Shown here in pieces: positions 3,228 to 4,308 of a stretch of 32,330 bases of DNA (positions within the stretch are counted from its first letter, which is position 1; every line of letters starts with the position of its first letter). The DNA is from Patescibacteria group bacterium. Lineage in GTDB: Bacteria; Patescibacteriota; Minisyncoccia; Phycocordibacterales; UBA2100. The stretch spans positions 1-32,330 of the forward strand of contig WFWK01000073.1 in NCBI GenBank assembly GCA_015491135.1, in the 5' to 3' direction. The position numbers and the translations under genes are program-made. The notes beneath the pieces are model-generated. The model was not told the origin of the DNA and made no database searches. It worked only from the letters and a program-made list of their open reading frames with translations.

Positions 3228-3326
3228 ATAAAATATCCTGCGTTAAAATAGTGATGCCCTTTGGGCTTGATTGTTCTTTATAGTAAAATTATTCCGCGGT
3301 AGCTCAGCGGTAGAGCAACCGGCTGT

Positions 3327-4042
3327 GTCACCATCTCTAGGCGACCTATGGTATACTGTTTGCATGTCTACCTCTCGTCGCAAAGAGAAAAGGACCTATG
3401 CCGATCGTAGAGAATACTTAATCGCCGCTGTCTCTAAACGTCGCAAAAAGTTGAGAGACAAAGCGATAGCATATGGTGGAGGTAAATGTGCCATATGCGG
3501 TTATTCTCGCAGTACACGCGCTTTGAATTTTCATCACCGCGACCCCAAAAAAAAAGACTTTGGCCTTTCTGCCAAAGGTTTAACGCGGTCTTGGGAAAAG
3601 ATCAAAGCAGAGCTTGATAAGTGCGTGCTGTTGTGCGCAAACTGTCATGCTGAAGTACACGACGGCATAACGCAGCTTCCCGAGGGAAACCCGGGTTGAA
3701 AAACGAGGTGAACTGCTGGGAACCCTAACGTAAAGACGAGGGCAATCAGCAGCCAAGCCCCCCACCACTTTACACCGTAATAATAATCAATCTTGCTTGG
3801 AGCTATATTGAGCATAAATTTATTGTATGCCGGCTCGAAATTATTGTGTAAAGTGGTGGGGGGAAGGTTCAGAGACTATCCCGAAAGGGAGTACTGTCCA
3901 ACACCACTTTTAAATTCTTGAGCAAGCTCAAGAATTTAAAAGTGGTGTTGGGTGGGAAGCGCCTCGCACCTAAACTCATTTGCATACAAATGAGCATGGT
4001 GATGATATAGTCCACCCCCAGTGGAAACATTGGGAATTGGTG
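3327..4042 (+). mobile_element. Group I intron (716 nt) inserted between anticodon positions 35 and 36
   Basis: It follows an exon U and ends in G. The R element GGTTCAGAGACTAT (3867-3880) and the S element GATATAGTCC (4004-4013) pair to form P7. A candidate guide GCAGCC (3749-3754) is complementary to the exon end GGCTGT. There is a GAAA-capped hairpin at 3881-3890. Long perfect helices lie at 3758-3775/3847-3864, 3901-3924/3927-3950 and 3975-3994. Confidence 0.85.
3364..3699 (+). CDS. Intron-encoded HNH endonuclease
   Basis: CAICGYS...NFHHRDPKKKDF...KCVLLCANCHAEVH is a classic zinc-finger-flanked HNH motif. It starts at the first ATG inside the intron. The ORF-track start at 3271 reads through the tRNA exon and is an artefact. 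Confidence 0.85.
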   Translation: MSTSRRKEKRTYADRREYLIAAVSKRRKKLRDKAIAYGGGKCAICGYSRSTRALNFHHRDPKKKDFGLSAKGLTRSWEKIKAELDKCVLLCANCHAEVHDGITQLPEGNPG

Positions 4043-4153
4043 TAACCGGTAGGTCGCAGGTTCGATCCCTGCCCGCGGAGCCAAAACAAATTACAAATAG
4101 AATCTTAAACTAAGACTAATGCCGTTAGGTCTCAGGCATGTCCCGCACCTGAA

Positions 4154-4186
4154 AGGTTGCTGGGATTCGATCCCTGCCCGCGGAGC
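4154..4186 (+). pseudogene. Decayed duplicate of the tRNA-Asn 3' end (variable loop to acceptor 3' strand)
   Basis: AGGTTGCTGGGATTCGATCCCTGCCCGCGGAGC compares with AGGTCGCAGGTTCGATCCCTGCCCGCGGAGC at 4051-4081. The last 21 nt are identical. There is no matching 5' acceptor strand upstream and no CCA. Confidence 0.6.
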
Positions 4187-4308
4187 AAGAATAAATTTAT
4201 TGTTTATTGTTTGTTGTTTTAATAACCTTGACACTTGATTTTATTTAATTTTAAGTCTAAATTGACTAAAGAATAAGCTTATTTACAATACAAACAAGGA
4301 GTCCTCCC

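Follow-up and report, generated by a model that had tools for sequence, protein, structure and literature searches.

A tRNA-Asn gene divided within its anticodon by a group I intron that holds an HNH endonuclease reading frame, and its relatives in Patescibacteria

How might a tRNA gene that is cut in the middle of its anticodon still yield a tRNA, and how could an endonuclease gene come to lie within the ribozyme on which that tRNA would depend? Both questions are raised by contig WFWK01000073.1 (assembly GCA_015491135.1) of a Patescibacteria group bacterium, a chromosomal piece from a small-genome bacterium that was analysed as an entire contig of 32,330 nucleotides and is referred to here as the window. 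ARAGORN reports 0 tRNAs in the raw window. An earlier inspection made without database searches (hereafter the sequence-only reading) had proposed that a tRNA-Asn(GUU) gene is split here by a group I intron bearing an HNH endonuclease open reading frame (ORF). With a probability of roughly 0.85, judged from sequence comparison, what lies here is a working tRNA-Asn(GUU) gene that carries, between U35 and U36, a composite mobile element composed of a group I ribozyme and an HNH homing-endonuclease gene. The observation itself is real, because the ARAGORN result on the spliced exons, the Rfam match to the intron and the Pfam and PHROG matches to the ORF each identify their part of it.

Splice sites and the identity of the tRNA

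When the two exons (Table 1) are joined in silico, ARAGORN scores the product as a 75-nucleotide tRNA-Asn(GUU), in which an anticodon loop of CUGUUAA, the U1-A72 pair, G73 and an encoded CCA can be read directly, just as had been described. The U1-A72 pair and G73 are features that we take to specify Asn identity, as in E. coli tRNA-Asn. The proposed 716-nucleotide intron, entered after an exon U and left after a G, is likewise upheld, with U3326 preceding it and G4042 as its last nucleotide, and the insertion falls between anticodon nucleotides U35 and U36.

The window alone permits a second junction, shifted by -2 (3324/4041), where -1 is again a U and the last intron nucleotide again a G, and which would turn the gene into a tRNA-Thr(UGU) interrupted between nucleotides 33 and 34. 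This is the choice made by ARAGORN once introns are allowed, which labels the window Thr(tgt) i(33,716) and gives a Thr call in many relatives too. Across 54 related loci, exon 1 ends in CUGU and exon 2 begins with UAA after a G in 54/54, and in many of these relatives the intron ends in ...AUG before UAA, such that the shifted junction would leave them with a terminal A. The shifted junction is therefore excluded, since only CUGU/...G/UAA (slashes marking the splice sites) fits all 54 loci. The guide sequence GCAG, furthermore, pairs with CUGU so as to place a U.G wobble at U35, and the acceptor features named above are those of tRNA-Asn. A threonine tRNA at this locus is, in our judgement, scarcely credible.

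A further line of evidence comes from the anticodon stem (nucleotides 27-31 with 39-43), the halves of which reside in separate exons. It is paired in 262 of 265 cells of the comparison, with CG, UA and GC serving as alternatives to one another, and the spliced tRNA is therefore under selection. Such covariation across the intron would be hard to explain unless the exons were joined into a working tRNA.

Fold of the ribozyme and its overlap with the reading frame

A covariance-model check with Rfam RF00028 (Intron_gpI) returned a group I match over the full model (1-253) at positions 3617-4034 of the + strand, scoring 76 bits where the gathering threshold is 50 (E-value 8e-18); six relatives also lie above the gathering score (64-87 bits). 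The P1 helix that Rfam places at 3621-3640, inside the ORF, is an alignment artefact in which the exon is not involved. The fold was then evaluated on an alignment of 69 introns, comprised of 53 ORF-bearing members, each taken to begin at the guide, and 16 members that naturally lack an ORF, by counting pairs on a curated structure of P2, P3 (as a pseudoknot), P4, P5, P6, P6a, P7, P7.1, P8 and P9. In this structure 92.5% of cells are paired, compared to 33-46% when the partners are slid, and changes on both sides are found in 36 of the 51 pairs; the observed values were reached by 0/500 shuffles. P7 is invariant. RNAalifold independently recovered P2, P4-P6, P7, a P7.2-like helix, P8 and P9. 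The core helices P3-P9, the P3/P7 pseudoknot included, are hence borne out by covariation.

Several particulars of the sequence-only reading needed adjustment against this fold. The R/S core element GGTTCAGAGACTAT is present, at 3866-3879 rather than 3867-3880. A GAAA-capped hairpin exists as described but is not alone, since three GAAA loops occur (3686-3689, 3883-3886 and 4024-4027). Of the perfect peripheral helices given as 18, 24 and 8 base pairs, the longest is in fact a perfect 26-nucleotide palindrome (3898-3923 with 3926-3951), and the other two stand.

The window intron is the longest of the 54 ORF-bearing members, at 716 nucleotides versus a median of 561, because it carries both the perfect 18-base-pair extension of P6a and the perfect 26-nucleotide palindrome in the P7.2 position. 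These two long hairpins, one in P6 and one between P7 and the 3' strand of P3, constitute the main difference between the window copy and its relatives; the P6a extension is common only to the window and its closest relative (L001), and the palindrome is found in L001 as well. The sequence CACCACTTT occurs four times in the window, always within these two hairpins, with a chance expectation of 0.3 and 0/100 shuffles reaching four. A core common to the two helices had been noticed before and attributed to internal duplication, and its confinement to them is compatible with a small duplication of this kind.

In the window, 80 nucleotides with two hairpins separate P7 from the 3' strand of P3, and most relatives are alike in this respect, unlike the compact architecture of subgroup IC3, where a few nucleotides suffice to join the two. 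In a minority of loci (L049, L060, L063, L050, L030 and L046) the P7.1/P7.2-like hairpins are absent and the junction is short. Like IC3 introns, the window intron lies in a tRNA anticodon loop, and the two hairpins are read as insertions into an IC3-like scaffold at the place where subgroup IA introns have P7.1 and P7.2.

The long perfect hairpins of the window copy might disturb folding, and this, along with a view limited to a 32-kb contig and to splicing as deduced from it, could be taken to mean that the intron no longer splices, that the gene is a pseudogene and that Asn is decoded via another tRNA-Asn in the genome. Such a dead relic is very improbable. The core helices are intact in a family that covaries, the exon halves co-evolve through their anticodon stem, and the catalytic residues of the HNH protein are conserved to at least 90%, if not invariant. 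Both long insertions, moreover, persist in L001, which belongs to a different species with an HNH protein that is 90% identical. Closed genomes of the candidate phyla radiation (CPR) also hold tRNAs for all amino acids, some of which are hard to detect owing to group I introns (Lui et al. 2021; PMC8172020).

The internal guide sequence had been sought in GCAGCC at 3749-3754, but this segment belongs to the 3' strand of P4 and continues into the start of P6. It covaries with the 5' strand of P4, the two switching together in relatives from UGCUGG/UCAGCA to UCGGGG/UCCCGA, and the GCAGCC motif is absent in about half of the family. The guide is instead the GCAG within ACGCAGCU, 27 nucleotides before the stop codon of the ORF, which forms an 8-base-pair P1 with a U3326.G3672 wobble at the splice site. 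The first intron nucleotide covaries with the base just 5' of GCAG, the pair being G-C in 46 and A-U in five of the ORF-bearing introns, and C-G in 12, G-C in two, A-U in one and G.U in one of the ORF-less introns.

Given a guide situated within the last codons of the ORF, the ORF must fill the P1 loop and overlap both guide and P2. The earlier placement of the HNH frame in a P1 loop, between the 5' splice site and the guide, is thereby retained with a different guide. The loop spans 3329-3669 (341 nucleotides), the UGA stop codon (3697-3699) lies in the conserved J2/3, and the last 28 nucleotides of the ORF are at once guide sequence and P2. Intronic HNH proteins always end in T-Q-L-P, whereas free-standing copies have T-K-I/V-P or other tails; as the free-standing copies lack T-Q-L, conservation of the guide in intronic copies reflects a constraint on the RNA.

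The HNH protein, its expression signals and a proposed mechanism

The identification of the ORF as an HNH endonuclease was confirmed by profile searches, with Pfam PF01844 matching at 24.2 bits (cut-off 21.4) and PHROG 2255, 'HNH endonuclease', at an E-value of 1e-31. Residues C42, C45, H57, H58, C87, C91, C94 and H95 are invariant in both protein alignments, and N93 and H99 are invariant among 40 database relatives and at least 90% conserved when free-standing copies are added. The catalytic His/Asn/His set and the CxxC...CxxC zinc site are thus kept at one or the other of these levels in alignments of 40-43 sequences. As to the beta-beta-alpha-metal fold expected of such a nuclease, an AlphaFold2 model has a mean pLDDT (predicted local distance difference test) of 80.3, and its best Foldseek neighbours, though weakly matched, are all HNH domains, namely those of Cap5, Cas9, Gme HNH and T4 EndoVII. 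A search of PDB sequences with the protein gave none that was significant, the best being the HNH part of a group II maturase (E 0.13), and a search of NCBIfam gave no match.

The HNH frame is open upstream through the first tRNA exon (3271-3699), and a gene call in a protein collection (P0001, 124 residues) is 13 codons longer, with an implied start near 3325, across the splice site. Alignment with relatives favours the ATG at 3364 over this longer start.

Just upstream of that ATG lies TGGTATACT, an extended -10-like motif. When the first 60 nucleotides of the introns were compared (L001-L078), it was found 3-10 nucleotides before the ATG in 42 of 54. In relatives it forms the 5' arm of a hairpin, the 3' arm of which holds the start codon (GTATGCCAG or GTCTACCAC), with a mean of 8.0 of nine pairs formed versus 6.3 in shuffles; the hairpin is weak in the window (GGTAtAC/GTcTACC). 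The same motif also precedes free-standing CPR copies of the gene and is found in only one of 80 phage loci. Together, motif and hairpin suggest an internal promoter and a masking of the start codon in the precursor tRNA. A similar control of expression is reportedly exerted on I-TevI in the td intron of T4.

These elements can be assembled into a sequence of events. The pre-tRNA would first be transcribed, whereupon GGCUGU and the two first intron nucleotides would pair with ACGCAGCU to form P1, a pairing that sequence and covariation show, and the core would fold into P2, the P3/P7 pseudoknot, P4-P6, P8 and P9, as covariation shows. By analogy with the chemistry of the family, an external guanosine would then attack the 5' splice site and the freed exon 3' OH would attack after G4042, joining the exons and restoring the anticodon GUU. 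The 111-residue HNH protein, for its part, would cut intronless tRNA-Asn genes, and repair of the break would copy the intron in (homing). Ribosomes on the ORF would be expected to compete with folding of the ribozyme, because the guide sequence and P2 are made up of its last codons. This conflict may be relieved by the TGGTATACT motif and its hairpin, if they provide a separate internal promoter, with expression from a short internal transcript, and mask the start codon in the precursor.

Table 1. Features of the interrupted tRNA-Asn gene and its surroundings, in window coordinates
Feature	Position	Strand	Basis
tRNA-Asn(GUU) 5' exon, nucleotides 1-35, ending U35	3293..3326	+	ARAGORN on spliced exons; exon 1 end CUGU in all family members compared
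P1 5' strand, GGCUGU/GU, splice site after U3326	3321..3328	+	pairs with 3670-3677, including U3326.G3672
Group I intron, 716 nucleotides	3327..4042	+	Rfam RF00028, 76 bits versus gathering 50
TGGTATACT, extended -10-like motif, 3' end 7 nucleotides before the ATG (A3364)	3349..3357	+	in 42/54 introns
HNH endonuclease ORF, 111 residues, in P1 loop	3364..3699	+	Pfam PF01844; PHROG 2255
Internal guide sequence, P1 3' strand, ACGCAGCU, T-Q-L codons	3670..3677	+	GCAGC invariant in 69 introns
P2 hairpin, GAAA loop	3679..3695	+	all 6 pairs changed on both sides; 95.9% of cells paired
P3 5' strand, partner 3960-3966, pseudoknot with P7	3704..3710	+	7 pairs, 4 compensatory; 94% of cells paired
P4 (3714-3719 with 3746-3751) around P5/P5a (3723-3742)	3714..3751	+	P4 switches CG/GC 34:31, GC/UA 37:29
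P6 (3752-3754 with 3866-3868) and long P6a extension, 18 perfect base pairs (3758-3775 with 3846-3863)	3752..3868	+	curated alignment; repeat analysis
P7 5' strand, partner 4007-4013, GAGACUA / UAGUC core	3872..3879	+	invariant in 69 sequences
Two hairpins between P7 and P3 3' strand	3880..3951	+	P7.1-like 3880-3889 (GAAA loop) covaries; P7.2-like 3898-3951 predicted with covariation by RNAalifold
P3 3' strand	3960..3966	+	curated alignment
P8 (3967-3970 with 3998-4001) and P8a (8 base pairs, 3975-3982 with 3987-3994)	3967..4001	+	curated alignment; sequence
J8/7 and P7 3' strand, GAUAUAGUCC	4004..4013	+	Rfam match; curated alignment
P9 hairpin, GAAA loop; omega G at 4042	4017..4034	+	6/7 pairs compensatory; G end in 54/54 introns
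tRNA-Asn 3' exon, U36 to encoded CCA	4043..4083	+	ARAGORN; family junctions; anticodon stem across exon halves
Partial second copy of tRNA 3' end and about 10 nucleotides of downstream flank	4153..4197	+	32-nucleotide direct repeat 4061-4092 versus 4166-4197, 91% identical

Relatives in Patescibacteria and phages, and assembly of the element

The sequence-only reading had implied that an arrangement of this kind is rare, but the HNH protein has 2091 relatives at E<=0.001, and the family is large in Patescibacteria. The best 120 of these are 67-79% identical and come from Patescibacteria wherever the source names an organism. The closest relative in the genome collection (L001) belongs to a metagenome-assembled genome (MAG) of Candidatus Kaiserbacteria. 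The window is hence one copy among many in ultrasmall Patescibacteria/CPR bacteria, and the single locus is ordinary within its family.

Arrangements were counted in 80 species-level genomes that encode the protein. The ORF lies inside a tRNA-Asn intron, between nucleotides 35 and 36, in 55 of them; in 19 a free-standing HNH gene, located upstream, downstream or opposite, accompanies a tRNA-Asn that is interrupted at this site by an ORF-less intron; in four the gene lies beside an intronless tRNA-Asn; and two were assigned to no class. The ORF-less introns measure 192-317 nucleotides and mostly have a minimal P1 loop, CUGU/C-AAAG-GCAGC. In one locus (L025) the ORF-less intron begins, at 2426-2445, with GGCATAACGCAGC, which corresponds to the final codons of the HNH gene, and the tRNA is preceded, at a distance of 60 nucleotides, by a free-standing HNH gene. 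The ORF seems to have left the intron recently, and the leftover codons imply that loss of the ORF also occurs, with movement therefore seen in both directions.

The same intron or HNH gene is also found in MAGs labelled as other than CPR (L069, L071, L072, L078, L080, L077, L079 and L073, with the labels Simkania, Thermodesulfovibrionales, Gammaproteobacteria, Aminicenantes, Limnocylindria, Heliobacteriaceae, Pyrinomonadaceae and Nanoarchaeota among them). Either the family extends beyond Patescibacteria or short contigs were mis-binned. In two of these loci (L071 and L078) the D loop differs and the first intron nucleotide is A.

A further reservoir of HNH relatives is found in phages, with more than 563 on IMG/VR contigs. 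Among the 80 best phage loci (L081-L160), 75 lie in tRNA gene arrays and encode proteins that are 45-65% identical. Where a nearest downstream neighbour of the HNH gene was scored it is tRNA-Asn in 24 of 50 cases, and where an upstream one was scored it is tRNA-Asn in 14 of 21, yet tRNA-Asn accounts for only about 13% of the tRNAs in these arrays. The HNH gene very often directly adjoins an intronless tRNA-Asn(GUU), and several arrays contain two or three tRNA-Asn copies. Intronless tRNA-Asn genes with an identical 36-nucleotide anticodon arm were also located in nine metagenome contigs (L161-L169), in none of which an HNH gene is found nearby. One of these (L164) has about 23 nucleotides of upstream flank in common with the window (88%), and in three (L161, L166 and L167) the gene is part of a tRNA array that holds tRNA-Asn two or three times.

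These distributions bear on what the protein does. The composite intron is probably mobile, as judged from sequence, with the HNH protein as its homing endonuclease. It could also be that the ribozyme splices while the protein no longer, or not only, serves in homing, but acts as a splicing cofactor, a self-regulator or a nuclease against competitors in an element that is inherited vertically. The very strong conservation of the protein (57-90% identity across deep CPR lineages) would agree with this, as would the presence of the element in most genomes that encode the protein, with few empty targets per lineage; the conserved palindrome over its own start region could be an operator, by analogy with the autorepression that is said to occur in I-TevI. 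We know of no HNH protein that acts as a group I maturase, however, and all catalytic and zinc residues are kept. The gene also moves among intronic, adjacent and phage-array positions, always near tRNA-Asn, as a site-specific mobile nuclease would, and intronless target alleles exist. A role other than homing therefore seems unlikely to us, if a good deal less so than a dead intron.

Some features of the family weigh against a functional and mobile composite intron. Exon positions -5 and -6 show no covariation with the guide, as G, A or C stands opposite an invariant C, and P1 in many relatives therefore rests on only four exon pairs. No P10 pairing of the 3' exon (UAACC) with bases 5' of the guide is evident on inspection by eye, and the overlap of the ORF with guide and P2 could hamper splicing. 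The modelled protein resembles known HNH structures weakly (best E 0.03, TM 0.3-0.4). Near-fixation in many lineages, with protein identities of 60-90%, agrees with vertical inheritance under selection no less than with ongoing homing. Self-splicing, expression of the ORF and cleavage of DNA, lastly, are all inferred from sequence.

For how the composite element arose, the range of HNH arrangements matches the route of collaborative homing towards composite mobile introns. In collaborative homing, a free-standing endonuclease acts together with an ORF-less intron, as in the cyanophage psbA/F-CphI pair and in another system from phages (reviewed by Hausner et al. 2014, PMC3984707), and free-standing endonucleases are also known from phage tRNA clusters, such as SegB of T4 (PMC2330249). 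The first of these settings is paralleled by the free-standing HNH genes beside tRNA-Asn with an ORF-less intron in 19 genomes, and the second by the HNH relatives beside intronless tRNA-Asn in phage tRNA arrays. Differences from psbA/F-CphI are that the host gene is a tRNA gene rather than protein-coding and the enzyme is of the HNH rather than the GIY-YIG type. The window also differs from collaborative homing in that its ORF is inside the intron, as the proposed end state, and the family in that movement is seen in both directions. Site-specific cleavage of an intronless allele near the insertion site would be in keeping with the consistent linkage of the gene to tRNA-Asn in CPR genomes and phage arrays.

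The series would run from an HNH nuclease specific to tRNA-Asn in phage arrays, through a neighbour of an ORF-less IC3-type intron, to entry into the P1 loop, where codons T-Q-L-P came to serve as guide and P2 and where an internal promoter and start-codon hairpin would keep splicing undisturbed by translation, and would end in a nearly fixed, obligatory step of tRNA-Asn maturation in Patescibacteria. All stages (phage-array, adjacent and embedded HNH) are still present in public genomes. As a history it is tentative, and we would put it at somewhat less than an even chance.

Parts of this system have clear precedents. The tRNA-fMet gene of Synechocystis PCC 6803 contains a group I intron that encodes I-Ssp6803I (Bonocora and Shub 2001, in PMC3984707) in an ORF of 150 codons (PMC5733544); this too is an endonuclease-bearing group I intron in a bacterial tRNA. 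The host there is tRNA-fMet, whereas here it is tRNA-Asn with a site at 35/36, and the ORF here occupies the P1 loop with its last codons as guide and P2. The Synechocystis enzyme is reportedly of the PD-(D/E)XK type, unlike the HNH protein of the tRNA-Asn intron. The distributions differ as well, the tRNA-Asn/HNH family being widespread in Patescibacteria and the Synechocystis type sporadic in cyanobacteria.

The classical IC3 introns of tRNA genes lack an ORF and are typified by Azoarcus tRNA-Ile(CAU), tRNA-Leu(UAA) of Anabaena and plastids, and Agrobacterium tRNA-Arg(CCU), with tRNA-Leu interrupted at 34/35 and tRNA-Ile and tRNA-Arg at 36/37. The window intron resembles them in its anticodon-loop site, its compact core and its P2 and P9 with GNRA loops, and the J3/4-P4, GCCAAG, GUAGAGACUA and GAUAUAGUC segments are presumably very similar to those of the Azoarcus intron; the ORF-less relatives at the Asn site extend the likeness. 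It differs in its tRNA and position, in bearing an ORF and, together with most members of its family, in the two additional hairpins between P7 and P3. HNH endonucleases encoded in group I introns are familiar from phages in I-HmuI, I-TevIII and I-BasI, which have the carriage of an HNH-type nuclease by a group I intron in common with the window; their hosts are phage protein-coding genes and the proteins are larger, with extra DNA-binding modules.

Within the phylum, introns with LAGLIDADG endonucleases are known from rRNA genes of Patescibacteria (Brown 2015; Tsurumaki 2024, PMC11270868). They too are self-splicing introns in essential RNA genes, but with another host gene and with LAGLIDADG rather than HNH enzymes. 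The view of bacterial tRNA introns as mostly ORF-less and restricted to four classical tRNAs, on which the sequence-only reading relied, reflects older literature, as group I introns in CPR tRNAs had already been noted (PMC8172020). Anticodon-loop group I introns, an endonuclease-bearing tRNA-fMet intron, phage HNH introns and CPR tRNA introns are thus already known. No description of a tRNA-Asn group I intron or of this HNH family was found in the accessible literature, and a preprint by Nakagawa et al. 2025 (10.1101/2025.07.03.662931), titled on group I introns in Patescibacteria tRNA genes, may already cover it.

Around the interrupted tRNA the window encodes def, fmt, an ion channel, a cation-efflux protein, VanW, dnaG, rpoC and rpoB. 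Downstream of the tRNA lies a partial second copy of its 3' end (Table 1), which includes G73, the 3' strand of the acceptor and, of the T loop, the 3' half. A similar copy is found 88-197 nucleotides downstream in seven of the 54 intron loci (the window, L001, L003, L006, L019, L028 and L049), and at several of them it is preceded by a terminator-like hairpin and by an inverted copy (GTAGGATTCGAACC), such that a long hairpin is possible. No Rfam family matched this element at the E-value threshold in six loci. The partial copy may have been left behind by an element that once integrated at the end of the tRNA, and may not be part of the intron system.

For the bacteria concerned, the first consequence is one of annotation. 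Standard tRNA finders miss the gene, and carrier genomes of Patescibacteria would therefore appear to be without tRNA-Asn, a gap that is closed by knowledge of the family, of the exact junction CUGU/...G/UAA and of the guide sequence. The family also constitutes a large natural data set, in which free-standing, adjacent and embedded forms of one endonuclease surround one target gene, and the series of arrangements is informative about the assembly of mobile group I introns. It further offers a case of coding overlap in which protein-coding sequence doubles as the guide sequence of a ribozyme. If the interrupted copy is the only tRNA-Asn gene, all decoding of Asn in these minimal cells would depend on a ribozyme.

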